A stretch of 64,000 nt of DNA from a virus. The notes under the pieces are model-generated. The model did no database searches, was not told where the DNA came from, and saw only the letters and a program-made list of their open reading frames with translations. The position numbers were made by a program, and so were the translations under genes. Where the stretch lies: positions 61,190 through 125,189 of the IMG/VR virus record IMGVR_UViG_3300028571_000013, one strand, 5' to 3'. Below are positions 6,371-30,876 of this stretch, piece after piece; position 1 is the stretch's first letter; every line of letters begins with the position of its first letter.

Positions 6371-6383
6371 CTAGTCAATATAA

Positions 6384-6391: not shown

Positions 6392-6433
6392 AAAGTATTA
6401 GATATTCCTATATAATTTAAAAGGGGTCAAAAT

Positions 6434-12027: not shown

Positions 12028-12339
12028 ATGAAAAATAACCAATCTTCTAGTCGCAGAGAAATTATAGAACAAATTGAAATAAGATTTAAAACTATAATGA
12101 TAGGCTCTTTAGCAAGATTCGAAAAAGAATTTGGTCATTTATGGAATAATAATGCTGAGCCATCCAATAATCAAGAAGAATATTTTAGTGAAAAGTGGGA
12201 AGATTTGAGACATGATCTATTGGACCATGGAAATAATCAAATCCGTCAAGGAATAGAAGAATTGAATATGTATTTAAATAATGTTGAGAAATATAGACTA
12301 CAAGTGTTTTATAATCATAACAAGGAGAATAATCGATGA
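12028..12339 (+). CDS. Hypothetical protein
   Basis: AAGGA RBS; coupled to the next gene. Confidence 0.6.
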   Translation: MKNNQSSSRREIIEQIEIRFKTIMIGSLARFEKEFGHLWNNNAEPSNNQEEYFSEKWEDLRHDLLDHGNNQIRQGIEELNMYLNNVEKYRLQVFYNHNKENNR

Positions 12340-13211
12340 GCGAAACTTTTAAGACAAAGATTCAGGATAAAGAAGTTACATTCTTAGTTAGGATGCCTAA
12401 CCTACAAAATCAGAGAGAAGGACAAAAGATCTATAATCAAGCATTCTCGGATGCTGTTAAATCTGGTTCTATTGTTAGAGCTAAATTAGATGATCTATTA
12501 ACAGAACAAGGATTATGGGACGATAATAAACAGGCTAGATTTTTAGCCATTCAAAGAGAGCTTAATGATAGTGAAAAGAAATTGGCTGTTGGTGGTATTT
12601 CTCTAAAAGAAGCCAAAAATATAGCTATTTCTATGAAAAGAGTAAGAGATGAACTAAGAGAGTTAATTTCTGTTAGAACCAACTTAGACACCCATACTGC
12701 CGAAGGACAAGCTGATAACTCTAGATTTAATTATCTAGTTTCATGTTGTGTGGTGTATAATGATAACAAGAAGTCTTATTTTAATAATTATGAAGATTAC
12801 TTGAATAGGTCCTCAGATCCCGTTGGTATACTTGGTGCACAAAAATTAGCATCAATGTTATATGGATTGGATTCAGATTTTGAGAAAAAACTACCAGAAA
12901 ATAAGTTTTTATTGGATTATAAGTTTATTAATGATGATTTGAGATACATTAATAGAGAAAGTCAGTTGATTGATGAAGATGGCAGACTGGTTGATGAAAA
13001 TGGAAGATACATTAATGATAGTGGGAAATTTGTTGATAGGGAAGGAAATTTGGTTAATGAAAAGGGAGATTATGTTGTAGATTTTACTCCGTTTGTTGAT
13101 GATGAAGGTAAGCCAATAGTATTGGAACAGAAACCAAATGAAAAACCAGTCATTGACCAATCGACTCCGGAACCCAAACCAACAACAGAAACACCCCCTG
13201 TTAGCTCATGA
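12336..13211 (+). CDS. Probable tail assembly chaperone with short (D/N)xxGxxV repeats
   Basis: AAGGAG RBS; IDEDGRLVDENGRYINDSGKFVDREGNLVNEKG repeats; directly precedes the TMP. Confidence 0.5.
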   Translation: MSETFKTKIQDKEVTFLVRMPNLQNQREGQKIYNQAFSDAVKSGSIVRAKLDDLLTEQGLWDDNKQARFLAIQRELNDSEKKLAVGGISLKEAKNIAISMKRVRDELRELISVRTNLDTHTAEGQADNSRFNYLVSCCVVYNDNKKSYFNNYEDYLNRSSDPVGILGAQKLASMLYGLDSDFEKKLPENKFLLDYKFINDDLRYINRESQLIDEDGRLVDENGRYINDSGKFVDREGNLVNEKGDYVVDFTPFVDDEGKPIVLEQKPNEKPVIDQSTPEPKPTTETPPVSS

Positions 13212-13314: not shown

Positions 13315-16300
13315 ATGGCAGCAGCATTTAATTTGACAGCACAGATTAATTTGAGAGGACCAACCAACACAAAATCAATTGCTTCGTCTATTAGAAAGCA
13401 ATTATCTAATATCAAGGTTAAGATAGATCTTGATATGAAAGGATCTTCAGCCAAAAGTATAGCTCTGGTTAATAAAGGTTTACAAAGCATAGCTACAAAT
13501 GCATCTAAAGCTAATTCTAATATTAATCAACTTAATGCTAGCATTCAACAATTAGCGACTAGTCTTGGTGGACTTGCAGCTTCTAGTCCACAAGCATTAG
13601 CGGCCACAGGTAAAGCGGCAAGTTCAGCTGGTAAGTCTGTTTCTACTGCAACTTCTCAGATGCAAGAATTCGGTAAACAGTCTGGACTAGCTATTCGTAG
13701 ATTTGCTGCCTTCAGTACAGTTACTGGCGTAATTTATAGTTTAACTAATGCTATTACTAGTGCTTTTAAAGAATTTATTACATTTGATAAAGAACTGGTC
13801 AGATTATCTCAAGTTACTGGATCGAGCATGACTGCTTTATCCGATATTACAAAAGAAATAACCAGACTATCAACTACTCTGGGCGTTACATCTTCTGACT
13901 TATTACAAGTTTCTGTAACCTTAGCTCAAGCCGGCTTATCTGCACAAGATACTAAAACAGCACTTGAAGCATTGGCTAAATCAGCTTTAGCGCCATCTTT
14001 CGACGATTTAAATAGTACAGTAGAAGGTAGTATTGCTTTAATGAGGCAGTTTGGTATTAGTTCTGGAGAGCTAGAAGGCGCTCTTGGTAGTATCAATGCT
14101 GTTGCTGCTGCATTTGCTGTGGAAGCTAGCGATATTATCGTTGCTATACAAAGAACCGGTGGTGTGTTTGCTGCTGCTAGTAATGGTGTTAGTCAGGGTA
14201 CGGATGCTCTTAATGAATTCATATCAGTATTTACTAGCGTACGAGCTACTACTCGTGAAAGTGCCGAAACTATCGCTACGGGTTTAAGAACAATATTTAC
14301 CAGAATACAGAGAGGAGCAACAATAGAAACTCTCAAAGAATATGGTGTTGTATTAACAGACTTAGAAGGGAAATTCGTTGGACCATATGAGGCTGTTCGC
14401 AGATTAAGTGAGGGTCTTAATGGCCTTGATACTCGTGACTTGAGATTCTCTAAGGTTGTTGAAGAACTTGGTGGATTTAGACAAATTGGTAAGGTTATTC
14501 CTCTTATCCAGCAGTTTGCAACAGCAGAAAATGCCTTATCAATTGCTCAAAAGGGTCAGAGTTCTTTGAGTAAGAATGCTGTAGAAGCTCAAAAATCGTT
14601 AGCTATTCAGTTTGAAAAAACTAGACAAGCCTTCGTTGCCCTCATTAGAGATGTTGGCAATAGTAGTACCTTTAGAACAATTGCAACGATAAGTTTAACT
14701 ACCGCTAATGCTTTCGTATCTCTTGCATCAGCACTTAAGCCATTGTTACCAATGTTAACGGCTCTTGCTGCTATTAAGGGAGCATCAATTCTTAGTGAAT
14801 TTACTTCTGGTTTTGTAGGAGGTCTTGGTAAAGGCGCTCCTGATGGAGGAGACGACGGAGGTGGTGGTGGCGGTGCAGGGGGTGGAGGCTCTGGCGGCGG
14901 TGGTTCGGGCGGTAAGAGTGGCAAGAGTGGCAAGGGGAAAGGTCCAGCAAGCTCTAAGGTTGTAATGGCTAATACCCATGCTACAGCTGCAAATACTTCA
15001 CAACTATCTATAGTTAATACCACATTAGTAGGAATGATTACTAGTTTAAATAACTTAACTCAGATTATTGATAATGCATTTCCACCATCTGGAGGAACCG
15101 GATCTGGTCCGACAACAGCTAGTAAGGGTGGCAGAATATTAGGATTTAAACGAGGGGGTAGTGTTCCTGGTTATGGTAGAGGAGATAAAGTATCGGCTCT
15201 ATTAGAACCAAAAGAATATGTTATGAGTCGTGATGCTGTTGAGAAATATGGCACGGGTACATTTGATGCCATGAATAGTGGAGGAGCTATTCAGAGATTT
15301 AGTGTTGGTGGAGGTACTGATGCTATATCAACATATAAAGCAAGCTCTATGGGGCTTAATAGAAGTTTAATGCTTGGAACTCCATTAACTAAAGAACAAC
15401 AAAAAATCAACAAAGACTTAAGTAAACAAGCCAAAGATAAATTACCAAAACAATTATATTCTGGTATCGGAGAAAATAGACTCAACATTATTAAAAAACA
15501 GGTTGGAGACAAGCTACAAGAATCAAAAGGTAAAACATTTTCACTGCCTGGATTTTTATCTACCAGTTCAGATAGTTCTATTGCAATGGAGTTTGCTCGC
15601 CAAGGACTTTTGACTATTTTGACCAACCCTAAGAAAAAAGGCATTAATACCAATAAACGAGTGAGCACAGAATATGATCTGGAAAAAGAATTTATATTAC
15701 CTCAAAATTCTAAATTTAAAGTCTTAAAAGCAGAACAAAGTCAGTCTGCTGTTCGTCCTGGTAGTTCTTTGAAAAAAGAAAAATCTAATTTAGATGTTCA
15801 ACAACTAGCTTCGGGTGGAGCTATACAAAAATTTGGTAAAGGGTCGTCTGGTGGCAAGGGAGTTAAAGCATCTAAGCCTAATAGTCAATCATTAGTTGAC
15901 CTACCTCCAGACAAGGATACGCATTTTACACACCTAGACGCAAGAGTAGAAGCTAAAGATTTCCCCAAAGAATTTCAAAACTATTTAAAGAAAAACAAAA
16001 AAACATCAGTCGTTGATGCATTATATTCTAGTATGGGTTTAGATTTACCAAGAAACTGGAACCTAGACTGGAGCCAGTCACCTAATAGTGCTGGTTCATC
16101 TAGTAAATTGCTATCAGACTATATATCTAAGCCTAGCAATGAGATATTTAAAACATTATTAGGTAATAGAAAATCCTCTTCTGCGGCTGAAAAATATGGT
16201 TTTGAAGGTAGAGAAAAGTCTATAGCTGCTGGCTTTCTGTCCGAGGCACAAGATAATATTAGATCTAATTTGGCATCTTTGATTAAAAGTAATAGTAAGA

Positions 16301-19300
16301 AATTCTATGATACTGACAAAGATGATGTCTCCACGACCATGCCTGATCTTTTAGAAAGAAGTATAGGTAAGTCTTTACCTAAATCAAAATCACCAGTGCT
16401 TATGGAGGCATTAAAAACTAAAATAGCTTATGTAGGCAAGAATAGTAAAGGTAAGGACTATAGAGATAGAATTAATAGGGAAATGAGGAAAGTACTAAAC
16501 TCAAATAAAAAATCTAATGGAGGATTCATACAAAAATTTGCTGATGCTGGAGAAGTTGATATTGATGAAAGCTTATTAAGACCTTATGGACAAGTTGGTG
16601 TTTTAGCTAAAAAGAGTCTTAAGGGTGATGCGGGATTAAGTATAGAAGAGGCCGTTAGGGAGGTTCTAGTTAAACAATTAGCCGGGCTAGGTAATGAAGC
16701 TGGTATAGCAGAACTAACCGCCATTCCTGCAAACCTACGCAGGAAGCTTAGGAAAGACATGATTTCTAAAGGGCAGATAGATTTACTAGGAGCATCTGAT
16801 GTAATTAATAATGCTCTGTCCTCTAAGGGAGTACAAGATGCAGAGTATGCTGCTAAAGTTGAAAAAATGAAAAAGGTTGGTGTTGTTGGATTAGTAGATG
16901 GTCAGGGTAAATTAGATTATTCTAAAGATTTTGATAATTGGGATATTGGTAATAATCGTACAGTCTACGCTTATGCTAGAGGTTTCAAGTCCCAATATTT
17001 TGACGCTGTTACTAAAATGCAACAGCAAACAGCATCTGCTAAGGGTCAGTTTGCAGAAAATCTACAATATGCTGATATATTTACTGGTGAACCACTAGCT
17101 TTTGATTTTGATGAAACTTTAGTTGCTGGAGCAGATATTCTTAATGATAAAGGTAAACCAGATATTCCTAAATATTCTGATAGAACCATTGTGCAAGAAG
17201 CTCTAAAGAAGGGTAGATTAACAAAACTAGGAGCTAAGTTAAAATCTCTTATAGATGCCGACCCAGACTTTATTAAACAAACTAGAATTCTTACTGCTAG
17301 ACCACAAAATACTGAAGATCTTTTGGCACAGACCCTACAGAGTTTTGGACTACCATATAAAGCTGATGATGTTACTGGAGTAAGTCAAGGTCCTGGTACA
17401 GATATTGCTGGTGCCAAAGCGGCTAATTTAAGCAAGACAGAAAAATTAATTGATGATAATCTAGATAATGTTAGGGCTGCTGAAAAATCTGGTAAAAAAG
17501 CTTATCAATATAGAGAACCAGGATTAGCTCCAGAATATCAAGAATTGATGGGTCAAGGAAATATTGAGGGTGCCGTAGTAGAGGCGGCATTAGCAGAGCT
17601 TGGAGCTAGCTTACCGCCAATCGCCCAACTAGAACAGAATAGAGCCGTAGACTTTGAGAATGGATTAGGCCCAGCTGCTAAATATTTTGGTATCCCAAGC
17701 AATATTCCAACAGAAGTAAAGAGAACTCTTACCGGTTATGCTTTTGATAGAGCTCGTAAAGAGTTTGGTAGATATTATGATGAGAATCCTAGTAAGTGGT
17801 TTGAGGGTGGACAAATTCAAGCTTTTGATGAGGGGTCTATGGGAGGCGTTAAGCCAGATAGATCAACTAAGAATAAAAGAAGAGGGGCCTATGGTACTCG
17901 TGGCTTTACGCCACTGTCCCCATCAGAGCACTCCTCATTTGCTGCACAAGCTTATAGAGATGCTGATAGTGATGATAGTGTTGAGTGGTCAGATCATTAT
18001 GGCATGAAGATGCCAAAAGTATTAGCTGATTATTATGATAAACTTAATAAGTGGACTTTTGAATCTGGTGGTGCTGGTATTGCTATTGGTAAGAAATTGG
18101 TTAAGCTACCTGATGATATAGATCCAGAAGCTTTAGAAGCACTTAAACCAGATTTAATTAAACAATATGATGGATGGTATACAGAGGTAGAAGAAGTATT
18201 ACCATTTGGTAGACCAACAGAAACAAAGAATCCAGCACTAGCAGCTAAACAAGCTAGAGCATCAGCAGCACTAACGGCAGAAAGTCGTAATACTGCTTAT
18301 ACACAAGCAGAGGATGCTATAGGTTCATTTAAGAAAACTGGACAATTATCTTTTGATCCATCAATTGATAGTCATATCAAATCATCTTTTCCAAGCTATA
18401 TTAGTGAATTAGAGGATGAATTAAAATCAACAAGTGATCCCGATGAAAAAATCTCTATTCAGCGCAAACTATCTAAGGCACAAAAGGCCTGGCCAGATTA
18501 CCAGGCACTAACTAAGGGAACATCAGTACCAAATCAAGGTAGAGTAACAGCGCTATCAGAAACCTTATATACTTTATTAGATCAGTATGGTAGTGGAGAT
18601 GTTGCCGTATCCGAACTAGATAATATTCTTAAGGCTATGGGACAGAAACTACCAGTTAAAAAAGCCCATGGAGGAATACTACAAAAATTTAGTATTGGTG
18701 GTAAACTTTCAAGAGGATCGAATGTTCAGAATACAACGCAAGGGTTTGCGGTTGGAGGCGAAACAGAAGCTTTAAGTGACCTTAGAGATTGGACAAACGT
18801 TCAACAAGATCCAAACTTCCAACAAGCTGTTACTGACTTTGAAGGACTCTACGGCAGAAACAACGTCATGAATAAGCCTCAGTTTGATGCTTATGATAAA
18901 GATAAGAGTAAAACCCCCAAAATAGGAATGGACGAAGGATTAAGTGGGGCCTCGTACAAGGTTACTCCGGGAATGATAGAGCAGAAGGGCGCAGAATATC
19001 AAGATATTATAGCTAATAGGGTAGCAGGATATCGAAAAGCAAATAAAGTTCAGCAAGCAGCGATTGAAAAAAATAAGATTAAGTCCCCAGCACAACAAGC
19101 TATGGAGGACGCCCCATTCTTTAAAGACGCTCGTATACAAAAGGCTCTTGAGGATCAAGGAAAGGGGATGAGAGACTACGAACCTCGTCCTAAGCAATAT
19201 GCTATTGGAGGAATACTACAAAAATTTGCAGATGGAGGAGCGCCCGGTAAGAAATATTCTTGGAGAGAAAGTAAAGGAGTTATGGATTCCTTTAATTCTA

Positions 19301-22300: not shown

Positions 22301-25300
22301 CACAAGATGTACAACTACAAGCAGAACTTCAAGCATTAGATCAATTAAGACGCATAGCAGATAATAGTGAGGCTTTTGCCACTGGAAATAAATCTTATGC
22401 TAATAGAATAATGAGAAATAGTGATGTTGTTGAAAAAGCATCATTAACTCCAGAAGAAAGAAGAGCCTCTTATGGCCGCAAGGAGAGCGGAGGAAAGCTT
22501 AATAGCTTAAATATACTACAAGAACAGGAGATGAGAAGCTCTCTTGGTGCTGAAGGTATGGTTGTGAATGATCAACAGAGCGTTCAGGAGTATCTCGATA
22601 CTCTTGGTGCTGGTTCTGAAAAACGTAAAAAGGCTGATGCAGCTATAGTTAAAGCTCAAGAACGTTTACGTAAAAGAATATATATAGAAGCTCGCGTAAG
22701 ACAGGGACAAGATAAAGAAGTTGCTCGTAAAGAATATGAAGGGGCTATTGGTAAAGACGGCAAAGTTCGTAATGCTAAATCTGCTGGTAAAGTTAATAAC
22801 TTAGTAGATCAAGAACTGGGTAGAGAAAATAGATCCCGAGTATTAGCTGATAGATTAGAGATAATAAATAGAGATGTTAAGAAATTTACTCTGAATATTA
22901 GCGATGTAATGAGTCGTTTGTCTTCTTCTATGGCTAGAATAGTTAGTGAGATTGATGCTAGTGCTACTAGGGCTATGAATATTTCTGGAGAGTTTTCTGG
23001 TCAAGGAGCAAGAGCTAATGAACCAGATGCTCAAAATGTAAGAGTTCTTGAAAATATCACAGCATATACCAGAGACGAACTATCTTCTGTTGTTGATAAT
23101 GTTACTGCTGGTCTTGGAGATAACGAGCAAACAAAACAAATAGGAAGCTTTGTTAAAGGTCTACAGGCTATTGAACAAGAACTGCCACTGATTCTTAGAG
23201 ATACAGAAGGAGGAAATCTTGAGGCTGGCTCTCGTTCGAATATAGAATCTAGATTGAGCGATATGTTTGCTGGATTAGACATGGCTCCTGGTATTCGTAA
23301 AAAATTAGAAGATAGTGTTTTGGAGTGGATTGATAGTGGAACATCTATTAATAGAAAGGGCATGTCTGTAGATGATCTTGCTGATAATATTCAAGCATTT
23401 AAAGAACTTAAAGATTCTGGAGAAAAAGCTAGGAAAACTTTAGAGGATTATGCTAGAAAACAACTTGAGGTAAATCGTAAGCTTGGAGCTATGTCGGATT
23501 CGTTAGCTGCTCAATTTGATAAGCTAGCAGATAACTCCATTAAAGTTAAAGATATTAACTTACAGGCCGCACTGCAACTTAAGGAAAAATTTGGACAAAC
23601 ACTCTCTCTAAGAGAGATGACATCACCATTTGAAGCATCTGTTGGCGGACTAACTGGTGGATTAACTGATCCTGCTACTATTGGTCAAGAAATATCAAAA
23701 GCTATTGCAGAAAAGAGAATTCTAGAAGCTGATCCTTCTAAATCTACTAGCGCTTTGGGTTCTGGAGATATAGCAAAACTCACCTCAAAAATTAATAAGT
23801 ATACTAAAGCTCTTGATCTATTGGCAAACAATACAGATAGGGCCTCTGCTGCTCTTAAGAAAATTGATGAACAATCTCAAATTTCTGCTGGTCGTCGTCG
23901 TAGTGTGATGGACTTCTTTGATATTATAGATAACCCAGAAGCTATGCTGGGTTTTGCTAAAGAGACACAATCATATGGTAGAGTTATGGGTGGTGCTGGT
24001 AGTATTGGAGATATTAAGGGAGCAAAGTCAACACTACAAAGTTTAGAAGGAACAAAAACGCCAGAAGAATATCAAAGACTACAACAACAATTCTTTGATA
24101 ACGTAACAAGAATACTTGCTAATGCTGGTGGTGATCCTGCTGTTTTTAATCAATTCAAAGATATGTTTGCTGGTGATTTTGGTAGAACTGAAGATAATCC
24201 ACAAATCAAACCATATATTGATGCATTTAATCAAGCAGCCACAGTACAAACGCAAGCAGTAAGAACACAGTCTGATCTTATTAGACAGGGTGGAGAACTA
24301 TTATCCAGAGCATTGTCCACATCTGCTGATGATTTTACCAATAAGATGCAAACTGCTATTACTAATATTGTTAATGAGTTAAATGCTGTGGCTACCAGAT
24401 TAGGCGTAGGGGGCGGCGCTGTTCCAGCCCCACCACATGCTAAGGGCGGCTTAATAAATTATTATGCTATGGGTTCTATGGTCGATTTTGCCCCTAAGGG
24501 AACAGATACTGTTCCAGCAATGTTAACGCCAGGAGAATTCGTCGTTAACAGAGCTGCAACATCAAGGAATCTTCCACTACTACAAAATATTAATAGTGGT
24601 AAATATAGTAGTGGTGGAAGTGTTAAATATTTAGCTAAAGGAGGTTTATTAGACCGTAGTGTACGCACTAGGTTCCCAATGGTACCAGACACAGAGTGGG
24701 ATAAATTAGCTGGCACATCTGATCATATACCATTGAGTAGTTTTCCACAAAGCGATTTGTTAAAATATGTAGATTTTAGATCAGCGTCTAAAGATAATGT
24801 ATTAAATAAATCAGAACTAGATAGTTATAATTCGGCAGTACAACAACATCATGACAGATACCTCTCAGGATCTGCTCAACAAAAATATAAGGTGTTGTCA
24901 GACAATAATCTTTTGATAGATAATTTACAAAAAGAAAAGAAACAATCTTCTGGATTTTTAGGTTTTGGAGGGGACAAAAATAAAACTAAACAAACTAGTC
25001 AAGCTTTAAACAAAGCAATAGCATTTAGAGATAAAGAACTTAAAGCTGGTTCAGGTTTAGATTGGTACAAAACTTATGAAGCTGCTCATGCTATACAGAA
25101 TAATAAACGAATCACTGGCGGGCGTAACATATTAGAAGAGAATTATTTCGGTGGAGATAGAAATTTTCCATTTACTCCAGAATTTATGAAGGTGGATAAT
25201 GCTTTTAGAAACGCTAAATTAGGTCTTGAGCCAGCTGATTTTGAAAGTTTAATGTATGGCTTGGCTAGTAAAGCAATTCCCGGAGTATTGGGTGCTGTTG

Positions 25301-28300
25301 GTGGTGGTTTAGGTGCCATTGCTGGTGGATCCATCGGAACTTTGGGTGGTTTGATTACTGGCCCAGGAGCAATCGTTACAGGAACTGCTGGAGCATTATC
25401 TTTAGGCTTTACTGGAGGTATGCTTGGAGATCAAATAGGACAAAATATAAATTCATATATATGGGATAAATATATTCCAGAATCTATGAAGAATAGAGTT
25501 ATGGAGAAGATGAAGGCTAGTCCAGAATCATATTCAGGAGGCCAGTGGATAGGCTTTGGTGCTGAGTTGATGGGAGGTGCTGCTGCTGATGATATGATAA
25601 GAAAGGGTATGACATCAGCTTTTGGTAAAGCCACCTCAGTAAGCGCAAAAATGTTACAGAATGGCTCTATCACATCCAATGCTATTAAGCTTGCTCCTAA
25701 TAGTATTCCTATCGCTAATGCTGATGAAATTACTAATAGAAGTTTAGCATTATTTAAAGGTGGGGCTGAGCAAACTGTTCAAAAATCGAAGAGAGTGGTT
25801 GGTGGCAGTGGAAAGGTAGCAGTCCCAGAAATGCCAGCACCCAAATCAGAAGCTCCAGCTGGTGGACGAGCAACAGCAACAGTATCTCCTCGTAATTTGA
25901 AAGCTATTCAAGAACTCTTACAAAATTCTGGACTTAAGTACAACAATGTTGATAATTTATTAGATGACTTGGTTCGTAATCCTTCTGGTAAGGGGGTTTT
26001 TGAGATTCTTGGTAAGCCACCACAAACTGGTTCTGGAGTTCTAAAGCTTCAGAGATTATTACACCCAGACACTGCTGCAACATATTTACCAGATATTTCA
26101 GCAGATATACTTAATACGGGAAGTAAGAAATTTCAAAGAATCTTTAATATAGCTCAAAATAAAGATATTTTGAATAGATATTCATCTTTAATAGATGATG
26201 GATATTCTCCAAATAATATCGTTGATGCATTTAAGGGTAACGATCCTCCATATTTTATTAGAAGTCAGTTGGGACAAAAACCAGGCGCTCCAAAGTCAAG
26301 AGCCAAGGCTCCGGAAGCAAGTACAGGAACAGCTACTCCCAAACCTGGATCGACAACGCCACCTCAGCCAAAAACAGATGTTCCACCAAGAGGAAAAGCT
26401 CCAGAAAGTTCAACATCTGCTACTCCAAAACCAACAGATATGTCGGCACCACCAAAACCAACTGATATGTCAGCACCACCAAAACCATCCCGTGGTAAAG
26501 CTGGTGACGGCAGCACTGGAACTAAACCAAAGCCAACACCCCCAAAGGCCCCATCTGGAGCACCATGGTCCGATACTGTTAAGACCAAGCTTGCTCAATT
26601 ATGGGAAAATAGTAAAAATACTGTTGGATCAGCTAAAAATTTCTGGGATAAATTACCATCTTGGGCTAGAAAGGGTATAAGTTGGGGTAGTACAGGATTA
26701 GGTTTGTATGGAGGCAAAGCTATATGGGATTGGGCTACCGGAAATTCATCAGTCACCATTCCAGATGCTACCCCTTCTGGAACTCCTACTGGCGGACCAC
26801 TACCTCCATCTACATTTGGCGACGACCCATTAGAACCTATTAAATATGCTGTTGAAGAAGCTAAACGTAAATATGAATCGACACAAGCTGGTAGAATGGA
26901 TGCTTTCAAAACACAAGATGGTCAATATAGTTTTGGACAGGTTGTGAGTGCTGCTGCTAATCTTGGTCTTAAAGATCCAATGGGTATCACGGACTTCAGA
27001 GCACGATATGCTAAAATACCAAAATTTGAACTTGGAGATGGCTCTGAGGCTGGACAACTATTAACACAAAAAGAAAGACAAGATAAACAAGACGAGCTAG
27101 ATAGTCTAAACAATCAAATAGGCGATATTGCTCAATATGATGTCGATAATGATCCAAATATTAAGGTTCTACTTGGTAGAAGAAATGAACTACGCAAGCA
27201 GTTGGAGAGTGACTATAGGGGACAGCTTAATCTTGGAGTGCCTACAGGAGATAAGCCTCCTAAGTTTACGTTATCAAGTCCAAAAGTTCCCAGATCCAAA
27301 GAAGACTTTGGGTTAACAGACGATATGATTGATCCAGTTTCGGGTAAGCCACTACCGGGCTTAGTCAACGCTGCTAAAGATAGTCCAATAATTAAAGAGT
27401 TGTCAAATCTAACTTCACATCAAGCAACCCTTAATAGAAAGGATGACTCAGGAAGCGCCACACCTGGACAAACTAATGGATCATTATTATCAAAATATAA
27501 ATTAGATTTTGAAGATTTAGAGAAAGAATCAGCAAACGCTAATATGCGTAATGGACAAGATCTTCTTAATAGATTTAATAAATTGAAGAAGTCTTATGTT
27601 AAAGATTTTGGACCAGTCAATGATCTTGACGATCAAGATATAGCATTTGGTATGGATGCTCAAGGAAAAGCAAAAGCACAGGGAGAGGTTATTAGGAAAC
27701 ATTTGGGCGGCAAATTAGGAGATAGCTCTTTTGTTGGAGCTCCATTTAAAGGTGGTCAATCTAATGGAGCAACACCACAAGAAAAAGCAAAAGCTCGTAA
27801 AGCTATCGATGAAATGAAGACTAAGTATGGAGTATCAACAGATGATGAATTAAAAAACAAACTAGAGGGTGCCTCTGTTAAAGAACAAAAAATTATCAAT
27901 GCTGATAAAGGATGGACAAGATTTGATAATAATAAGAAGACATATCATAGTGAATTAGAAAAATATTGGATGATAAGGGCAAGATGGGAAAATAGAGAAA
28001 AATTAAAGGCTGATCCAACTTTAATGATGACAGGTTCTCCAAATTTAAGCTCTGAAGATGTAACAAAACTTAATACAGAAATACAGGATTTGGATGGTCA
28101 GATACAGACTGCTGCTCCAGGTAAGCAAGATGTCGATGACCTAGTTCGTCGTAGACAAGAAAAGCTTGATCAACTACATCAAGGTCAAGGTATTAAGTTT
28201 GAATCAGTTCCACCTATGGAATATTTGTTATTTAATACTCCACATGATTCATCCCATCTTAATCCATTTAATACATTTGATAATAATTCATATGCTTATG

Positions 28301-30876
28301 GTAAACCTGGACAAAATATTAATAATGCTAAGACTCCATTTGTTAATGATACCAATTCTATTATTATTGAATTATTAACAGCATATGGTAAAGCATATGG
28401 TATTGAAGCAGATATTCCAACTAATAATAATTCATTTAATGAGTGGATTAAAGGTATCAACCCTGAGACTGCAACTAGTCTACCATCAGTATCTACCAAA
28501 AAGAGTTGGACATTAGACAAGCTTCAAAATCATTATGCTTTAGGAGAGACTGCTGCTGATACAGAGGGTAATTTTGCAGCAAAGTTTGGTTTGTGGGGTG
28601 TCGATGGTACAGAAAACTCTTTCAATAATAATTTTACAGAGCAATACAAAGAGAAATTTTTACAAAAAGCACGAGACTATCTGGTAAGCAAATCTCAGAA
28701 AACTGCTAATGAACAATATCGTTTACCAGAAAATACAGATAATTATCTGAAAGCTATAGATGCGTTTGCTTCATATACTGGTGGAATGGATAGGGATATT
28801 TACGGAAAAGTTAATCCGGGTTTTGGTACGCTAAATATAGATAAAGGCATTGAAGGAGCGGACGATCAAGAGAAGCTAAAGAAATTACGTAGTAAAATTA
28901 GTAGAGCATATGTGAAGTATAAGAGAGAAAATATAGATAAGGCTTTTGGTGGCATAACACCAACTAATATTGATAGATGGAAGAGTGTTGATAATAGATA
29001 TGGCTTCCCAGGTAGTCCAGAAGAGGTTAGGGATACTGTATTAGCAGATGTTAATACTTTAGATAGAATTAATAATTTAGATAATTATATGTTAAGTAAT
29101 AAGGTATCACCAGCAGATATTCGTTCGTTTACTGGTGGGGCTAATTTATTGATGGCTAATAATGGTCCTATAGGAGATGCTGTTGCTGGATCTTTCTCAG
29201 ATGTTGATGGAAATAAGGTAAAGGGAGATATTAAATTAGTAGATTTCTTGGTTAACGCACTAGACTTTTCAGCTCCTAGTCTTGTTAATGATAGACAAGC
29301 TAGGATTGATACGATTATAGGCATGGAGCTTGCTTCAAAAGTAAAAAATCCAAATCCAAGATATGCGCAGGCAGAAATTGATCTTGATACAGATCTAGAA
29401 AATATTAAAGATTCTTATAAGTTGTGGGACTCTCTCCAATCATATAGCATTGATCCAACAACTAAAAAATCAACAGTCGATTATATTAATCCAGATACAT
29501 TGGCTCTGGATACTTTTACCGGAGACAAGGATTCGGTAAATATTGCTGGCCAAAATATAGAGGCAAACTCTGGTTTCTTTAGGAGTTATGCTGGTGCCTT
29601 CACAGATGATGCTCCAGAATATAATCGATTAAAGCAAACTATTTCATATCTTGGTTCATTTGCTGGTGCAGGGTTGAAGTCTGCTGATCAGATGACAACT
29701 ATGCCTTCTCCATTTGATAATGATGCTTTTATCATGACTAAAAAAGAAAAGCAAATGCAGAGCGTGGCAACAAAACCAATTGGGGCGGCGGGTGCGGGAA
29801 CTGCTCCACCAGCGGGAACCTCTCCTCCAGCGGGAACCTCTCCTCCAGCGGGAACCTCTCCTCCAGCGGGAACCTCTCCTCCAGCGGGAGCCGCGCCAGC
29901 ATTAACTGGTGATGTTAAGACCCAAATTCAAACAATGCGTGAATCAGTAATAGGCAGTACTGGTAAAGCTAATAGTATTTTTGCTGATAATGCTCTACAA
30001 GATAGCGAAGCTAATGAATATAGTCCTATGTTAGATAATTTAGGAAGTTTATTATTTTCTAATATATCATCGTTTAGGGGTGATTCAGAGGCAGAAGCTA
30101 AGGCATGGTGGGCATATAAAAAACATTATCGTACAATAAAAAGATTTGGAGATCCTTTTGATCCTAAAGTGGTAGCTTCTAAGCCAAATATGGAAAGTAT
30201 TAATACAGAAAGGACTCTGAGAGGTAAACTAAATGAAATGATTCAACAGCCCAAGTATTTATCTAGTGGTGGTCCAGCACTAGTTAATTATCAACCAAAG
30301 GGAACTGACACCGTACCAGCCATGTTAACCCCCGGCGAATTCGTTATTAATAAATCATCAGCATCTAGACATATGCCATTATTACAAGCTATTAATAGTG
30401 GTGGTATTTCTTATGCTAGTTCTGGTGGTGTAATCAATCCTGTATATAAGGCTAGGGCCGGTGGAGTAGGAAATATGATGGGTATGGTTCAAGGCTTTGG
30501 AAAAGCTATGGGTTTTGATATGGGTGGAGCCAGTGCAGTGTTTGATAGCTTTATCAAGTCATTCAATACCGAAACCAATAATTTTGGATCTTTAATCAAT
30601 AATCTTGCTAAGGTATTTCCTGCTCTTAATGGTCCAGTTAATGCTTTTGGTGGTCATGTTGATAAATTAGTAAAAGCTCTTAATGAACTAAAATCGATAG
30701 AAATTAAGGGACCAAATATTCCTAATACTATTAATGTTAATAGTGAAACTATAAGAGTAGAATTAGTAGGACCAGAAAATACTAACTATAAATTAAGCCC
30801 AGATGATCAGAAAAAGATCTCAGACTCTGTAGCACTACAACTAAAAACATTAATTACAATGGGTAGAATTGCATAA
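13315..30876 (+). CDS. Giant multidomain tail tape measure protein (5853 aa) with embedded enzyme/effector-like domains
   Basis: TP901-type TMP core near the N-terminus (FDKELVRLSQVTG...LAQAG...RESAETIATGLRTIFTRIQ); repeated GTDTVPAMLTPGEFV-type motifs; internal ART, HAD, PD-(D/E)XK and J-like motifs. Confidence 0.9.
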   Translation: MAAAFNLTAQINLRGPTNTKSIASSIRKQLSNIKVKIDLDMKGSSAKSIALVNKGLQSIATNASKANSNINQLNASIQQLATSLGGLAASSPQALAATGKAASSAGKSVSTATSQMQEFGKQSGLAIRRFAAFSTVTGVIYSLTNAITSAFKEFITFDKELVRLSQVTGSSMTALSDITKEITRLSTTLGVTSSDLLQVSVTLAQAGLSAQDTKTALEALAKSALAPSFDDLNSTVEGSIALMRQFGISSGELEGALGSINAVAAAFAVEASDIIVAIQRTGGVFAAASNGVSQGTDALNEFISVFTSVRATTRESAETIATGLRTIFTRIQRGATIETLKEYGVVLTDLEGKFVGPYEAVRRLSEGLNGLDTRDLRFSKVVEELGGFRQIGKVIPLIQQFATAENALSIAQKGQSSLSKNAVEAQKSLAIQFEKTRQAFVALIRDVGNSSTFRTIATISLTTANAFVSLASALKPLLPMLTALAAIKGASILSEFTSGFVGGLGKGAPDGGDDGGGGGGAGGGGSGGGGSGGKSGKSGKGKGPASSKVVMANTHATAANTSQLSIVNTTLVGMITSLNNLTQIIDNAFPPSGGTGSGPTTASKGGRILGFKRGGSVPGYGRGDKVSALLEPKEYVMSRDAVEKYGTGTFDAMNSGGAIQRFSVGGGTDAISTYKASSMGLNRSLMLGTPLTKEQQKINKDLSKQAKDKLPKQLYSGIGENRLNIIKKQVGDKLQESKGKTFSLPGFLSTSSDSSIAMEFARQGLLTILTNPKKKGINTNKRVSTEYDLEKEFILPQNSKFKVLKAEQSQSAVRPGSSLKKEKSNLDVQQLASGGAIQKFGKGSSGGKGVKASKPNSQSLVDLPPDKDTHFTHLDARVEAKDFPKEFQNYLKKNKKTSVVDALYSSMGLDLPRNWNLDWSQSPNSAGSSSKLLSDYISKPSNEIFKTLLGNRKSSSAAEKYGFEGREKSIAAGFLSEAQDNIRSNLASLIKSNSKKFYDTDKDDVSTTMPDLLERSIGKSLPKSKSPVLMEALKTKIAYVGKNSKGKDYRDRINREMRKVLNSNKKSNGGFIQKFADAGEVDIDESLLRPYGQVGVLAKKSLKGDAGLSIEEAVREVLVKQLAGLGNEAGIAELTAIPANLRRKLRKDMISKGQIDLLGASDVINNALSSKGVQDAEYAAKVEKMKKVGVVGLVDGQGKLDYSKDFDNWDIGNNRTVYAYARGFKSQYFDAVTKMQQQTASAKGQFAENLQYADIFTGEPLAFDFDETLVAGADILNDKGKPDIPKYSDRTIVQEALKKGRLTKLGAKLKSLIDADPDFIKQTRILTARPQNTEDLLAQTLQSFGLPYKADDVTGVSQGPGTDIAGAKAANLSKTEKLIDDNLDNVRAAEKSGKKAYQYREPGLAPEYQELMGQGNIEGAVVEAALAELGASLPPIAQLEQNRAVDFENGLGPAAKYFGIPSNIPTEVKRTLTGYAFDRARKEFGRYYDENPSKWFEGGQIQAFDEGSMGGVKPDRSTKNKRRGAYGTRGFTPLSPSEHSSFAAQAYRDADSDDSVEWSDHYGMKMPKVLADYYDKLNKWTFESGGAGIAIGKKLVKLPDDIDPEALEALKPDLIKQYDGWYTEVEEVLPFGRPTETKNPALAAKQARASAALTAESRNTAYTQAEDAIGSFKKTGQLSFDPSIDSHIKSSFPSYISELEDELKSTSDPDEKISIQRKLSKAQKAWPDYQALTKGTSVPNQGRVTALSETLYTLLDQYGSGDVAVSELDNILKAMGQKLPVKKAHGGILQKFSIGGKLSRGSNVQNTTQGFAVGGETEALSDLRDWTNVQQDPNFQQAVTDFEGLYGRNNVMNKPQFDAYDKDKSKTPKIGMDEGLSGASYKVTPGMIEQKGAEYQDIIANRVAGYRKANKVQQAAIEKNKIKSPAQQAMEDAPFFKDARIQKALEDQGKGMRDYEPRPKQYAIGGILQKFADGGAPGKKYSWRESKGVMDSFNSKRTWYDVFEHNPEGGAKVVHSGSFDEVLKFLQDNRSKDTEQKSSEDPMKKLAGGGRIKLYHGSNTGVDDATLKSFKEKGALSDVAQGYGQGAGFYVYSGKEKAKEQAQMRVKGGLGSFAVVSGDTAGKPMVLTFEEALDPATWDLDYELNKGSVVKWLAQNFDKIKDKVAPGEKLTGIKDVVSPDSSKGIMSHGIRVQSDTGSIKTIYSGIDSDLREGELVGQIMNRLQSNDPEMVHGFENQFFKSPSLASGEWDNLALKYVGSSPLKPVDIETFAAGGSVQQFARGGVPALVSNGEAYIPPSTAKSIGYGTLNRMNQADKNGMGRFAVGGGVGVFKGPGSGTSDSIRTNLPVGSFILREKATKALGFNRGGSVGVRKFATGGGVGADRMDYLNRIADKLGITVQQYERSIREKIYKSAKGSAESKTSAQSDVGDVLIKNLENIGDASVEQATRESLTELISKIDPNIDATKLGSTIDDVITGMKNGLSVDELKQTSSDLKDILEKDISIVSELADAHKKYESELGFLTGKMKVRGIDVRAQKSLKEGKFGALESGNLRQAQRNLESPTGQRIDKFGEALKTQNIPGMKLLSSAFPKVADRLTTLGDKIGGVTGIIGSGSALLSTQMPGFLKSIDAFAGTVSEASPAVAGLQGALRDAGSFGLSGAIVGKQAFGAKGAAVGGAVGLAGGAVSGFIKESTSKEVELAMKGVSAASSDLDKTLSQLSGAKTFGERAELQDRAAKNYEALNTALEKSTSTIQQNKIWTSLASGLEGFLSGLTMVIGFMAAAQMGGPTLGPGSGKGSKGKKGGGGKGKKAAGGPIGFANGGLVPVKLADGEGVFTPPLPASTGEMKKMNNADRNGYKPSFSGAMSIVPGGGSGKVDNFETMLPEGSYVVRADAMKAMQEQEMATSNKGGSIGAHQSKISITGSTPKLSSGGEVQHFASGGQIQRLASGGGTRGYAVGGIVNLIMRGLKMGLGSALGAAVMNGLLSALGQFFDTSAQDVQLQAELQALDQLRRIADNSEAFATGNKSYANRIMRNSDVVEKASLTPEERRASYGRKESGGKLNSLNILQEQEMRSSLGAEGMVVNDQQSVQEYLDTLGAGSEKRKKADAAIVKAQERLRKRIYIEARVRQGQDKEVARKEYEGAIGKDGKVRNAKSAGKVNNLVDQELGRENRSRVLADRLEIINRDVKKFTLNISDVMSRLSSSMARIVSEIDASATRAMNISGEFSGQGARANEPDAQNVRVLENITAYTRDELSSVVDNVTAGLGDNEQTKQIGSFVKGLQAIEQELPLILRDTEGGNLEAGSRSNIESRLSDMFAGLDMAPGIRKKLEDSVLEWIDSGTSINRKGMSVDDLADNIQAFKELKDSGEKARKTLEDYARKQLEVNRKLGAMSDSLAAQFDKLADNSIKVKDINLQAALQLKEKFGQTLSLREMTSPFEASVGGLTGGLTDPATIGQEISKAIAEKRILEADPSKSTSALGSGDIAKLTSKINKYTKALDLLANNTDRASAALKKIDEQSQISAGRRRSVMDFFDIIDNPEAMLGFAKETQSYGRVMGGAGSIGDIKGAKSTLQSLEGTKTPEEYQRLQQQFFDNVTRILANAGGDPAVFNQFKDMFAGDFGRTEDNPQIKPYIDAFNQAATVQTQAVRTQSDLIRQGGELLSRALSTSADDFTNKMQTAITNIVNELNAVATRLGVGGGAVPAPPHAKGGLINYYAMGSMVDFAPKGTDTVPAMLTPGEFVVNRAATSRNLPLLQNINSGKYSSGGSVKYLAKGGLLDRSVRTRFPMVPDTEWDKLAGTSDHIPLSSFPQSDLLKYVDFRSASKDNVLNKSELDSYNSAVQQHHDRYLSGSAQQKYKVLSDNNLLIDNLQKEKKQSSGFLGFGGDKNKTKQTSQALNKAIAFRDKELKAGSGLDWYKTYEAAHAIQNNKRITGGRNILEENYFGGDRNFPFTPEFMKVDNAFRNAKLGLEPADFESLMYGLASKAIPGVLGAVGGGLGAIAGGSIGTLGGLITGPGAIVTGTAGALSLGFTGGMLGDQIGQNINSYIWDKYIPESMKNRVMEKMKASPESYSGGQWIGFGAELMGGAAADDMIRKGMTSAFGKATSVSAKMLQNGSITSNAIKLAPNSIPIANADEITNRSLALFKGGAEQTVQKSKRVVGGSGKVAVPEMPAPKSEAPAGGRATATVSPRNLKAIQELLQNSGLKYNNVDNLLDDLVRNPSGKGVFEILGKPPQTGSGVLKLQRLLHPDTAATYLPDISADILNTGSKKFQRIFNIAQNKDILNRYSSLIDDGYSPNNIVDAFKGNDPPYFIRSQLGQKPGAPKSRAKAPEASTGTATPKPGSTTPPQPKTDVPPRGKAPESSTSATPKPTDMSAPPKPTDMSAPPKPSRGKAGDGSTGTKPKPTPPKAPSGAPWSDTVKTKLAQLWENSKNTVGSAKNFWDKLPSWARKGISWGSTGLGLYGGKAIWDWATGNSSVTIPDATPSGTPTGGPLPPSTFGDDPLEPIKYAVEEAKRKYESTQAGRMDAFKTQDGQYSFGQVVSAAANLGLKDPMGITDFRARYAKIPKFELGDGSEAGQLLTQKERQDKQDELDSLNNQIGDIAQYDVDNDPNIKVLLGRRNELRKQLESDYRGQLNLGVPTGDKPPKFTLSSPKVPRSKEDFGLTDDMIDPVSGKPLPGLVNAAKDSPIIKELSNLTSHQATLNRKDDSGSATPGQTNGSLLSKYKLDFEDLEKESANANMRNGQDLLNRFNKLKKSYVKDFGPVNDLDDQDIAFGMDAQGKAKAQGEVIRKHLGGKLGDSSFVGAPFKGGQSNGATPQEKAKARKAIDEMKTKYGVSTDDELKNKLEGASVKEQKIINADKGWTRFDNNKKTYHSELEKYWMIRARWENREKLKADPTLMMTGSPNLSSEDVTKLNTEIQDLDGQIQTAAPGKQDVDDLVRRRQEKLDQLHQGQGIKFESVPPMEYLLFNTPHDSSHLNPFNTFDNNSYAYGKPGQNINNAKTPFVNDTNSIIIELLTAYGKAYGIEADIPTNNNSFNEWIKGINPETATSLPSVSTKKSWTLDKLQNHYALGETAADTEGNFAAKFGLWGVDGTENSFNNNFTEQYKEKFLQKARDYLVSKSQKTANEQYRLPENTDNYLKAIDAFASYTGGMDRDIYGKVNPGFGTLNIDKGIEGADDQEKLKKLRSKISRAYVKYKRENIDKAFGGITPTNIDRWKSVDNRYGFPGSPEEVRDTVLADVNTLDRINNLDNYMLSNKVSPADIRSFTGGANLLMANNGPIGDAVAGSFSDVDGNKVKGDIKLVDFLVNALDFSAPSLVNDRQARIDTIIGMELASKVKNPNPRYAQAEIDLDTDLENIKDSYKLWDSLQSYSIDPTTKKSTVDYINPDTLALDTFTGDKDSVNIAGQNIEANSGFFRSYAGAFTDDAPEYNRLKQTISYLGSFAGAGLKSADQMTTMPSPFDNDAFIMTKKEKQMQSVATKPIGAAGAGTAPPAGTSPPAGTSPPAGTSPPAGTSPPAGAAPALTGDVKTQIQTMRESVIGSTGKANSIFADNALQDSEANEYSPMLDNLGSLLFSNISSFRGDSEAEAKAWWAYKKHYRTIKRFGDPFDPKVVASKPNMESINTERTLRGKLNEMIQQPKYLSSGGPALVNYQPKGTDTVPAMLTPGEFVINKSSASRHMPLLQAINSGGISYASSGGVINPVYKARAGGVGNMMGMVQGFGKAMGFDMGGASAVFDSFIKSFNTETNNFGSLINNLAKVFPALNGPVNAFGGHVDKLVKALNELKSIEIKGPNIPNTINVNSETIRVELVGPENTNYKLSPDDQKKISDSVALQLKTLITMGRIA
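15319..15807 (+). other. VIP2/C3-like ADP-ribosyltransferase domain within the TMP
   Basis: Y..(6)..LNRSL, LYSG (R replaced by S), GFLSTS, E-K-E-FILP..SKFKV. Confidence 0.75.
17092..17511 (+). other. HAD-superfamily phosphatase domain within the TMP
   Basis: AFDFDETL (motif I), ILTAR (II), K (III), LIDDNLDN (IV). Confidence 0.85.
19465..20118 (+). other. H-Y-type (PARP/diphtheria-toxin clade) ADP-ribosyltransferase-like domain within the TMP
   Basis: IKLYHGS...GYGQGAGFYVY..KEKA pattern. Confidence 0.6.
29794..29889 (+). repeat. 18-bp tandem repeat (CCAGCGGGAACCTCTCCT x4 plus partial copies) encoding PPAGTS
   Basis: Four perfect copies at 29809-29880. Confidence 0.95.

Follow-up and report, generated by a model that had tools for sequence, protein, structure and literature searches.

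A giant tape measure protein of an uncultured phage carries a modular, recombining array of enzyme cassettes

INTRODUCTION

Most descriptions of tape measure proteins (TMPs) present them as rulers and channel formers, with at most a wall-degrading motif in addition. The subject of this report is a 5853-aa open reading frame (ORF) in the uncultured virus record IMGVR_UViG_3300028571_000013, in which a TMP core is followed by a long series of discrete cassettes; the stretch analyzed, positions 61,190 to 125,189 of that record, is 64,000 nt long and is referred to as the window, with coordinates counted from its first base. Among described TMPs, two stand closest. As characterized by Linares et al. 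(2023, PMC10038345), pb2 of phage T5 lies as a trimer in the tail lumen, is expelled on receptor binding, and is cut after R1127 during tail morphogenesis, between a hydrophobic stretch and an enzyme domain. As characterized by Chaban et al. (2024, Nat Commun 15:317, PMC10770324), gp96 of Thermus phage P23-45 is a TMP with a fused, active RNA polymerase, present on phage DNA 5 min after infection. Comparable effector-carrying proteins outside phage TMPs are the polyvalent proteins, the MuF toxins, and the injection-system effector Sle1.

The TMP analyzed here contains a modular, recombining enzyme array. The best explanation for this array, to which we assign a probability of roughly 0.7, is that a backbone TMP has been expanded by joint-bounded, recombining enzyme cassettes that are delivered to the host.

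RESULTS

A tape measure ORF divided by a repeated joint

The source record comprises 125,189 bases and is estimated to be 89% complete, the window being its last 64 kb. The ORF and its core are as follows.

13315..30876, plus strand: whole tape measure ORF, ATG start, 5853 aa, 0 internal stops
13315..14814, plus strand: conserved N-terminal TMP core (aa 1-500), with PF10145 at aa 180-382 and a hydrophobic stretch at aa 455-496

A first-pass annotation, made from the letters of the DNA, had described a single 5853-aa ORF with a TP901-type TMP core, Gly-rich hydrophobic stretches, and discrete cassettes between GG-containing linkers, and all of these points hold. The start, the length, and the absence of internal stops were confirmed. 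The core matches PF10145 (PhageMin_Tail), which we take to be the TP901-type TMP core, with an E-value of 1.9e-23 and 83.8 bits against the Pfam cut-off of 33.2 (91 bits in a six-frame search), and six PHROG tape-measure families match the N-terminal half of the ORF. The ORF is the tail TMP of an uncultured phage with a genome of ~140 kb. Identity of the core to its relatives is 49-88% by BLASTP, and its ratio of nonsynonymous to synonymous substitution rates (dN/dS) is 0.065. Five Gly-rich hydrophobic stretches were located, at aa 455-496, 2668-2691, 2761-2787, 2963-2992, and 3983-4038.

The cassettes are set apart by a short peptide, here called the joint, at aa 656, 834, 1069, 1498, 1786, 1965, 2273, 2931, 2940, 3711, and 3767. 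The regular expression GG.[IVLM][QKHNR].[FLYM] matches the TMP 13 times, against 0.46 +/- 0.67 expected and a maximum of 4 in 2,000 shuffles; a strict form, with G[GS] required at +9/+10, has 10 matches where shuffles yield 0.0135. Across the family, 606 copies of the joint occur in 184 sequences, with Gly at +9 in 80% and at +10 in 72%, and the consensus is [FYL][ANS]xGGx[VI][QKR][KR]F[A]xGG. The joints also have 15-22 nt of DNA in common, for example GGAGGAATACTACAAAAATTT, with up to 21 identical bases between the joints at aa 1786 and aa 1965.

The same strand opens a longer element, the GE module (GG..F..GG.VPG.G..D.VPA.LTPGEFV....A......L..IN.GG), of which there are at least four copies in this TMP and two to six per relative.

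15112..15279, plus strand: GE module 1 (aa 600-655), GGSVPG..D.V.A.LEPKEYV....A....G...DAMNSGG
20131..20514, plus strand: GE module 2 (aa 2273-2400), beta-hairpins and a short helix in the AlphaFold2 (AF2) model, with a predicted local distance difference test score (pLDDT) of about 37-82
24445..24684, plus strand: GE module 3 (aa 3711-3790), matching phrog_25241 at E 7e-8
30250..30876, plus strand: GE module 4 and C-terminal end (aa 5646-5853), present in 136/183 family sequences

In the AF2 model, the joint at aa 2273 is the first beta-strand of its GE module. GE module 1 is 60% identical over 43 aa to a 766-aa 'transmembrane protein' of the T4-like cyanophage S-SM2 (L083, locus 4996-7296), which is encoded between the baseplate-hub genes and a transglycosylase gene; this is the gp29/TMP position, so the module occurs in the TMPs of both tail types, contractile and non-contractile.

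Cassettes are gained and lost at the joints

A word search with the core-plus-cargo region recovered 16 giant relatives of 3,275-7,516 aa, all 16 with PF10145, the nearest of which (P0002) is 89% identical. A scan of IMG/VR with the core alignment yielded 461 pattern matches, 321 of them in stretches that encode a relative, and 80 loci were retained; the closed TMP frames in the IMG/VR loci measure 1,962-3,953 aa, and many frames exceed 4,000 aa, running to the locus end. When cassettes C-D were used to scan IMG/VR for close relatives, a single locus came up. The metagenome runs that contain the stretch carry lake and freshwater labels.

The cassettes concerned in the first comparisons are the following.

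15280..15813, plus strand: cassette A (aa 656-833), an ADP-ribosyltransferase (ART) of the R-S-E clade that retains STS and ExE and has Ser (LYSG) in place of Arg
18670..19206, plus strand: cassette E (aa 1786-1964), helical in a low-confidence model; 5/183 family sequences
19207..19452, plus strand: cassette F1 (aa 1965-2046), a small domain
19453..20130, plus strand: cassette F2 (aa 2047-2272), an ART fold unrelated to A, with YHGS, GQGxGFYV, WDLDYE, and KYVG

By BLASTP against the 16 relatives, the cassettes form a mosaic. P0002 is without aa 723-830 and aa 1830-1958; P0003 retains the first ART and is without aa 1834-1958 and aa 2052-2245; P0004 and P0005 match none of the ART, E, and F2 segments. 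Cassettes E and F, by comparison, are 76-79% identical in P0006, P0007, and P0010 (E 79%), although core identity in these three is only 56-57%. In local alignments, the break points of the ART and of E fall inside joints. Where the TMP here reads AMNSGGAIQR/FSVGG before the ART and ASGGAIQK/FGKGSS after it, P0002 and P0004 read AMNSGGAVQR/FGKGSS, and where it reads KKAHGGILQKF/SIGG before E and AIGGILQKF/ADGG after it, P0002-P0004 read KKAHGGILQKFADGG. At the F2 site, P0003 and P0004 have one joint-like peptide, NGGFITRFAAGG, in place of the cassette and its closing joint.

The same exchanges are visible among much closer strains. Contigs from runs X7 and X8, which derive from another lake study and are mostly 90-99% alike, skip from 15289 to 15824, an in-frame step of 534 nt that falls within the Ile codon of GGAI/Q in both joints; they skip from 18668 to 19206, a step of 537 nt with 22 nt that fit both sides; and they replace the interval from 19429 to 20167. 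For these runs, only junctions were counted, and uncovered parts of the stretch were excluded as evidence of absence. The synonymous substitution rate (dS) against a relative on L002 is likewise patchy, at 0.39-0.49 in cassettes C and D and sub-region I1, and 1.28-1.59 in the core and regions G and H. Because the break points of the relatives and the X7/X8 skips fall at joints, and because dS forms a mosaic, it is clear that whole cassettes have recently been gained and lost by recombination between joints. The alignment of related TMPs that the first-pass annotation had suggested as a check on cassette gain and loss thus gave a positive outcome.

These data also bear on whether the giant ORF could be an artefact, either a chimeric assembly or a series of separate genes that sequencing errors have joined. 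The record was assembled from a metagenome, and the Logan contigs of run X1, which may be the source sample, break at 29838-29860, at about the position of a tandem repeat. However, one 25,278-nt contig of X1 spans 13315-29838 with 0 differences, the 16 relatives of 3,275-7,516 aa come from several sources, the core is encoded in 321 IMG/VR stretches, and the variants without cassettes keep the reading frame, their skips being 534 and 537 nt, so that we give an artefact next to no weight. Continuity across 29838-29860 rests on the record itself and on the relative P0002, which aligns through q1959-5853. The tandem repeat, PPAGTS in about 5 copies, lies at 29803-29890 (aa ~5497-5525); its copy number may be variable or mis-assembled, and it is the sole uncertain point of the assembly.

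Cassette C carries a very divergent HAD phosphatase

No other cassette is as widespread as C, which 116 of 183 family sequences contain; all cassette counts were made among this set.

16519..17805, plus strand: cassette C (aa 1069-1497), with an N-terminal helical and beta sub-domain, a haloacid dehalogenase (HAD) domain, and a small D...(E/D)xK sub-domain
17083..17517, plus strand: HAD phosphatase domain (aa 1257-1401), from motifs and AF2 fold
17521..17808, plus strand: D...(E/D)xK sub-domain (aa 1403-1498), from its motif

A full HMMER search with cassette C gave 206 matches, mostly proteins of 1,845-7,279 aa. The HAD phosphatase noticed in the first-pass annotation is corroborated by motif, model, and fold comparison alike. 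Its four motifs (DxDxT, S/T, K, and DD) are kept in 19-21 of 21 rows, with D1264, D1266, T1268, K1368, D1380, and D1381 in 21/21 and T1327 in 19/21. The AF2 model, built from 27 sequences, has a pLDDT of mostly 78-98, and mostly 87-98 over aa 1257-1401, and Foldseek against the PDB places HAD proteins first (best E 7.4e-4, HAD-family probability 0.87-1.00). In a second fold comparison, with VIA, the T4 Pnkp 3'-phosphatase scores Z 11.3 (5uj0) and 10.8 (1ltq) and Clostridium thermocellum Pnkp1 (4xrp) scores 10.9, and the next HAD protein follows at Z 9.6 with others below, 1.2-1.7 Z units under Pnkp. The Pnkp alignments have a root-mean-square deviation (rmsd) of 3.2-3.3 A over 123-125 residues at 15-16% identity. 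For the whole cassette C model, VIA returned 44 chains at Z >=8, and 48 of the 50 matches listed are taken to be of the HAD fold, partly by title. A viral structure library gave 12 hits at E <=1e-3, comprising 8 of HAD/Pnk type (probability 0.99-1.00) and 4 low-probability polyprotein hits; among the 50 matches listed, 12 are named polynucleotide kinase/phosphatase, Pnk, PNKP-domain, or PseT, 5 of these at E <=1e-3. The domain belongs to a very divergent HAD lineage.

Purifying selection on cassette C is strong, with dN/dS of 0.051, 0.13, and 0.009 across its parts. The lowest of these values, the tightest constraint in the TMP, belongs to the last 96 residues, which are 100% identical to those of the relative on L002 at a dS of 0.49. 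Here the pattern ID...(E/D)VK is conserved in 19 rows, and D1446 and K1469 are invariant, with E/D at 1467, in the 19 rows listed and in 14 aligned. The proposal of a PD-(D/E)XK domain thus stands as far as the motif D1446...[E/D]1467-x-K1469 is concerned. The fold found no support from the PDB-sequence profile or from the ESM Atlas (low recognition, no named family), and the AF2 model of this part contains one strand and an isolated bridge only; the fold searches were dominated by the HAD domain and barely covered it.

Cassette F2 is a second domain with an ART fold

The F2 family (39 sequences) has the motifs YH[GAS][ST], GQGxGFYV, WDLDYE, and KYVG. Judged from its alignment, H2056 is present in at least 90% of sequences, as are the G and F of GFYV, with Tyr in the majority, and D2141 and E2143 of WDLDYE are invariant. 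The AF2 model has a pLDDT of mostly 79-96. VIA compares it best with TreX, an Rhs C-terminal toxin (Z 8.1), followed by matches at 8.0, 6.9 (PARP16), 6.9 (Tpt1), and 6.8 (PltA), and 36 of the 50 matches listed (Z 8.1-4.5) bear titles of PARPs, ART toxins, DarT, Arr, or Tpt1; on the tool's own scale, a Z near 8 counts as middling. Foldseek has PltA, pertussis S1, and tankyrase as its top matches at E 0.06-0.6, none of them at <=1e-3. Curated ART models match F2 below threshold, DUF3990 in 2/39 sequences (best E 0.019, 15.1 bits against 32.2) and PARP in 1/39 (E 0.055), and an F2 profile against PDB sequences returned nothing meaningful. Because the VIA list is uniform and the candidate catalytic H, Y, and E positions are conserved, we assign F2 to the ART fold, and the fold of the H-Y-type ART proposed earlier is thus supported by a match at Z 8.1. 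F2 is not confined to TMPs: its 27 homologues in IMG/VR divide into 14 encoded within giant ORFs and 13 that form genes of their own, 232-438 aa long, several of these on contigs of 186-381 kb. Separately, residues 1420-1609 of chain B of PDB 9k3a, the cyanophage A4 pre-ejectosome, align with F2 at Z 4.8 and an rmsd of 9.3 A, which hints weakly at a possible ART-like domain in a podophage ejection protein.

The resemblance of F2 to TreX raises another explanation, that the cassettes are virion-borne toxins of the polymorphic type, which would kill or arrest non-productive hosts or competitors in the manner of the MuF fusions that temperate phages carry. The architecture of a conserved trafficking part with variable, recombining enzyme domains is the one that accounts of polymorphic and MuF toxins describe (PMC3482391, PMC5576092). 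The cassettes here, however, are internal in an array and not at a C-terminal tip, and the TMP gene is followed by same-strand ORFs of 531, 642, 304, and 1030 aa with no small immunity-like gene among them. Nor were temperate features seen in the window, where a replication module is present and no integrase was found among 20 proteins scanned. We consider a toxin role to have only a slim chance of being correct.

Cassette A is an R-S-E-clade ART with an altered Arg position

Cassette A matches PF03496 (ADPrib_exo_Tox) at aa 716-818 with an E-value of 2.5e-8 and 33.9 bits against a cut-off of 23.4. The sequence FLSTS and the E-x-E motif (here E-K-E) are kept in 12 of 12 aligned rows from 11 family proteins, and F92, S94, S96, E135, and E137 of the cassette A profile alignment are invariant in 8/8. 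The VIP2-like ART of the first-pass annotation is therefore upheld by the family match above cut-off and by STS and ExE in 12/12 rows. When a profile of eight family members was compared with PDB sequences, the named matches were R-S-E ARTs only and were weak (E 0.002-0.05), with Lmo0066 at 0.0018, Vis at 0.012, CDTa and iota Ia at ~0.03, and ExoT at 0.047. The LYSG of cassette A aligns to the LYRG of Lmo0066.

Taken together, at least three cassettes, A, C, and F2, are counted as putative enzymes because of their predicted folds and their conserved catalytic motifs or purifying selection. Of the five folds that the first-pass annotation had named, these three hold, whereas support for PD-(D/E)XK and the J domain goes no further than a motif.

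Other cassettes, the backbone, and cargo diversity

The remaining parts of the TMP are as follows.

15814..16518, plus strand: cassette B (aa 834-1068), fast-evolving; 19/183 family sequences
17806..18669, plus strand: cassette D (aa 1498-1785), conserved; 20/183 family sequences
20515..22104, plus strand: region G (aa 2401-2930), helical, with hydrophobic stretches at aa 2668-2691 and 2761-2787 and a GE-like module near aa 2811-2916
22132..24444, plus strand: region H (aa 2940-3710), backbone, with a hydrophobic stretch at aa 2963-2992
24685..30249, plus strand: variable region I (aa 3791-5645), with a hydrophobic stretch at aa 3983-4038, a J-like segment, Pro-rich tracts, and the PPAGTS repeat
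25957..26184, plus strand: J-like segment (aa 4215-4290), HPD at aa 4250-4252

Cassette D, like C, shows strong purifying selection, with a dN/dS of 0.12; it has a 289-aa homologue, P0125, and its AF2 model is confident only in part. Region H is 22-29% identical to most relatives, the smallest included, and the sub-regions of region I occur in only 7-11 of 183 sequences, with dN/dS of 0.20-0.45. Of the J-domain-like segment that had been pointed out, the HPD at aa 4250-4252 of region I is present and a J-like helix II/III context surrounds it in 4/184 sequences. The DnaJ model (PF00226) matched neither the piece at E up to 10 nor anything in the whole record, while 12 of 14 control genomes gave a match, and the ESM Atlas gave low recognition with no named family. 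Searches of ten separate cassette pieces against Pfam at E up to 10 found the ART alone significant, with DUF3990 weak at 0.027, and nothing relevant in NCBIfam; a single-sequence search of aa 656-5653 against PDB sequences returned three irrelevant matches only, at E >=0.26.

The smallest closed family members (1,962-2,574 aa) consist of the core, GE modules, hydrophobic region G, and helical region H, with few or no cassettes. Their content indicates that ~2,000-2,300 aa of the TMP here are backbone and ~3,500 aa (aa 656-2272 and 3791-5645) are accessory. When the post-core sequence of 60 non-redundant relatives was cut at joints, 364 pieces were obtained and reduced to 122 representatives. 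At E <=1e-3, Pfam recognized 9 families in at most 10 of these, leaving at least 112 of 122 without a match; the cytidyltransferase-associated region HIGH_NTase1_ass (PF16581) occurred in 2 pieces, and ADPrib_exo_Tox, ART-PolyVal, AAA_30, EF-hand, and others in 1 each. The ART-PolyVal match (PF18760), 1/122, had an E-value of 1.3e-4, and PF18760 has no match in the record studied here. Most of the relatives' cargo is of an uncharacterized kind. Among individual relatives, P0013 is listed with EF-hand families and P0003-P0005 with PF28597.

Genomic setting

The TMP gene has the same orientation as the tail-fibre-like genes upstream, and it is followed by a block of late genes without annotation and then by a minus-strand replication module. 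Its immediate neighbours had no family matches in the family scans. The phage is probably a siphovirus, because no sheath family was matched in the whole record; this agrees with the tail being long and non-contractile but stops short of proof. A megablast search of 50,697 phage records found no cultured phage with near-identical DNA.

Directly upstream of the TMP gene, at 12028-13211, two ORFs of 103 and 291 aa, of which the second is in the -1 frame, have an ATGA overlap and resemble a chaperone pair. A -1 frameshift was considered for them and rejected: the heptamer TTTAAAT is in frame at 12273-12279, but the -1 frame stops immediately. Farther upstream, an island of 44-50% G+C at 956-6044 stands out within the ~35% G+C genome; it holds a 653-aa tail-fibre-like ORF with matches in several families of fibres, as well as long frames that overlap one another, possibly a sign of collagen-like or Gly-rich repeats. 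In the minus-strand part of the window, a family-B-like DNA polymerase at 45512-49866 is divided into two ORFs (47980-49866 and 45512-47116) that match the N- and C-terminal halves of phrog_405, and the 234-aa ORF between them (47113-47817) may be a mobile insertion, for example, a homing endonuclease or intron. A ribonucleotide reductase ORF of 1,090 aa (59555-62827, minus strand) has internal helicase, head-protein, and endonuclease matches at aa 319-578, which suggest an intein or other insert.

DISCUSSION

In the model that we favor, a backbone of ~2,000 aa, in which the PF10145 core is combined with at least four GE modules, hydrophobic Gly-rich segments, and a helical region, has been extended by cassettes that are swapped by recombination between joints. 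Like other TMPs, the protein would be held as a trimer and expelled from the tail tube at infection. The hydrophobic segments would then form a conduit through the envelope. The soluble cassettes would enter the cytoplasm either before the DNA or together with it, and, once refolded, they would act immediately on NAD-dependent and phosphoester targets of the host, in takeover or counter-defence. Ejection and cytoplasmic entry are proposed here by analogy with T5 pb2 and P23-45 gp96.

The steps after ejection could also be read differently, with the cassettes working in the periplasm or envelope, as peptidoglycan hydrolase motifs in other TMPs do, or in tail assembly, and not as injected cytoplasmic effectors. 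The enzymes described in the T5 TMP are muralytic and envelope-acting (PMC10038345), and since hydrophobic segments lie between cassette blocks here, some parts could stay outside the membrane. However, NAD and the phosphoesters of nucleic acids and nucleotides are established cytoplasmic substrates, no peptidoglycan hydrolase family was detected in the TMP, and the TMP-fused enzyme of P23-45 is described as working on cytoplasmic DNA (PMC10770324). An envelope or assembly role is, on balance, improbable.

Several observations weigh against the model of delivered enzyme cassettes. The canonical NAD-binding Arg of cassette A is Ser, Thr, or Ala in 12/12 rows (LYSG, LYTG, LYAG, LYSS), a nearby Arg (GENR) is inconsistent in position among the rows, and, to judge from these substitutions, an Arg-less cassette A may be inactive or atypical. 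The HAD domain has no Pfam match at E up to 10 and no NCBIfam match, the PF13419 (HAD_2) and PF08645 (PNK3P) models match nothing in the whole record, and a profile of the domain against PDB sequences found no HAD protein below E 1. Neither a Pnkp-type kinase (PF13671, AAA_33) nor an RNA ligase (PF09414) was found in the record, so that a T4-like tRNA repair set around the phosphatase is not evident; PF09511, another RNA ligase model, also has no match in the record, but the control genomes had none either, making that result uninformative. Cassette B has a dN/dS of 0.46 and an AF2 pLDDT under 50, and B, I2, and I3 as a group are fast-evolving (dN/dS 0.43-0.46). No confident AF2 fold was obtained for B, E, or most of D, and the model parts other than F2 and HAD were barely covered by the fold searches. 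No peptidase domain and no HExxH motif able to cut the joints turned up in motif and family searches of the TMP, where the sole match to H[ED]xxH / Hxx[ED]H is HDSSH at aa 4977, in an unconserved context. The family is without a cultured relative, a tblastn search of the 50,697 phage records with the core having returned 3 records only, the strongest of which matches a Rhodococcus phage TMP at 25%. Finally, three copies of folded 20-45 kDa domains exceed, by estimate, the lumen of a siphovirus tube and should not fit, and the cassettes would have to travel unfolded.

Some of these points favor an alternative, that the TMP only sets the length of a very long tail (~880 nm by the rule of 0.15 nm per residue) and that the inserts are spacer whose enzymatic ancestry is irrelevant. 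Under such a reading, the loss of the canonical Arg in A, the fast evolution of B, I2, and I3, and the helical or low-confidence character of much of the TMP in the AF2 models would be expected. A spacer, however, would not preserve catalytic residues, and the HAD motifs are kept in 19-21 of 21 homologues, STS and ExE in 12/12 rows, and the F2 motifs in free-standing genes of other phages; dN/dS in C and D (0.009-0.13) is as low as in the core. We regard a pure ruler as unlikely. The account of P23-45 (PMC10770324) suggests that one TMP domain can be both cargo and ruler, and by analogy it suggests that the two need not be alternatives here.

Returning to the model of delivered cassettes, the joint itself may be a flexible hinge, or it may be a cutting site that frees the cassettes. 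A more specific and distinctly tentative extension is that the joint has a dual purpose, as the site of cassette exchange in the DNA and as a cut or hinge in the TMP that would release effectors before phage gene expression, with cassette C as an injected tool for nucleic-acid end repair or signal degradation. If this extension is true, this freshwater phage family is a large reservoir of first-minute takeover and anti-defence enzymes.

This TMP, together with at least 321 related contigs, suggests a general arrangement, a chassis with enzymes plugged in and out at a dedicated joint, and the exchange is recent enough to show when lake-metagenome strains 90-99% alike are compared. Should the cassettes be delivered, the TMP would provide a second route for pre-loading effectors, beside head-borne polyvalent proteins and T4 Alt, and would account for some TMPs being far longer than seems necessary. 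Delivery would also make these proteins a rich source of enzymes aimed at bacterial NAD, nucleotide, and nucleic-acid biology, as well as a natural design for multi-cargo delivery. The arrangement raises the mechanical question of how foldable enzymes move through the tail lumen and whether they are counted in tail length.

Comparison with known systems

No prior description of joint-delimited, recombining enzyme arrays in TMPs was found in the literature searched, which covered few subscription journals. At the level of single cassettes, C resembles T4 Pnkp and C. thermocellum Pnkp1 in its small HAD core and DxDxT nucleophile motif, and it differs from T4 Pnkp in its 15-16% identity, its lack of a PNK3P match, and the absence of a detected kinase or RNA ligase in the record. 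Cassette A has STS and ExE in common with the R-S-E ARTs (VIP2, iota Ia, CDTa, C3, and ExoS/T), whereas their Arg is replaced in A. T4 Alt is an example of an injected phage ART of the same R-S-E group.

Among TMPs, T5 pb2 is similar in carrying an enzyme domain and different in that this domain, as described by Linares et al. (PMC10038345), is a muralytic metallopeptidase. The pb2 cut site (SFVPR/AEGGMMYPG..GEHGTEVV) was considered as a homologue of the joint and is treated as a lead that does not count as evidence, the resemblance being a loose one of GG/GE and the strict joint regular expression having 0 matches in pb2. P23-45 gp96 too is a giant TMP (5,002 aa) that unites enzyme and membrane domains in one polypeptide. 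Compared by its description in Chaban et al. (PMC10770324), it has a single fused enzyme, an N-terminal two-barrel RNA polymerase, plus a metallopeptidase, whereas the TMP here has an array of unrelated cassettes, a repeated joint, joint-to-joint exchange, and no peptidase motif.

MuF toxins (Jamet et al. 2017, PMC5576092) and Sle1 (Nagakubo et al. 2026, PMC13277306) are similar in that a platform protein bears exchangeable domains. In both, as these sources present them, there is a single C-terminal variable domain, unlike the array here, and the carrier also differs, being a head protein for MuF and, for Sle1, a TMP-related effector of a bacterial contractile injection system rather than of a phage.

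The polyvalent proteins (Iyer, Burroughs, Anand, de Souza, and Aravind 2017, PMC5512222) offer a functional parallel, in that several effector domains, ARTs included, are united in a protein co-delivered with DNA, a delivery that in the present case is suggested by analogy. Their carriers, as that account gives them, are head or ejection proteins, and its main text does not contain the word 'tape'; the carrier here is the TMP. A zincin-like metallopeptidase (MPTase), a Zn-peptidase for processing, is described there as pervasive, whereas this TMP is without HExxH. With three enzyme domains of unrelated effector type in one TMP, the protein would, given delivery, belong among the polyvalent proteins, and it is set apart from them by a dedicated, conserved joint that separates its domains.

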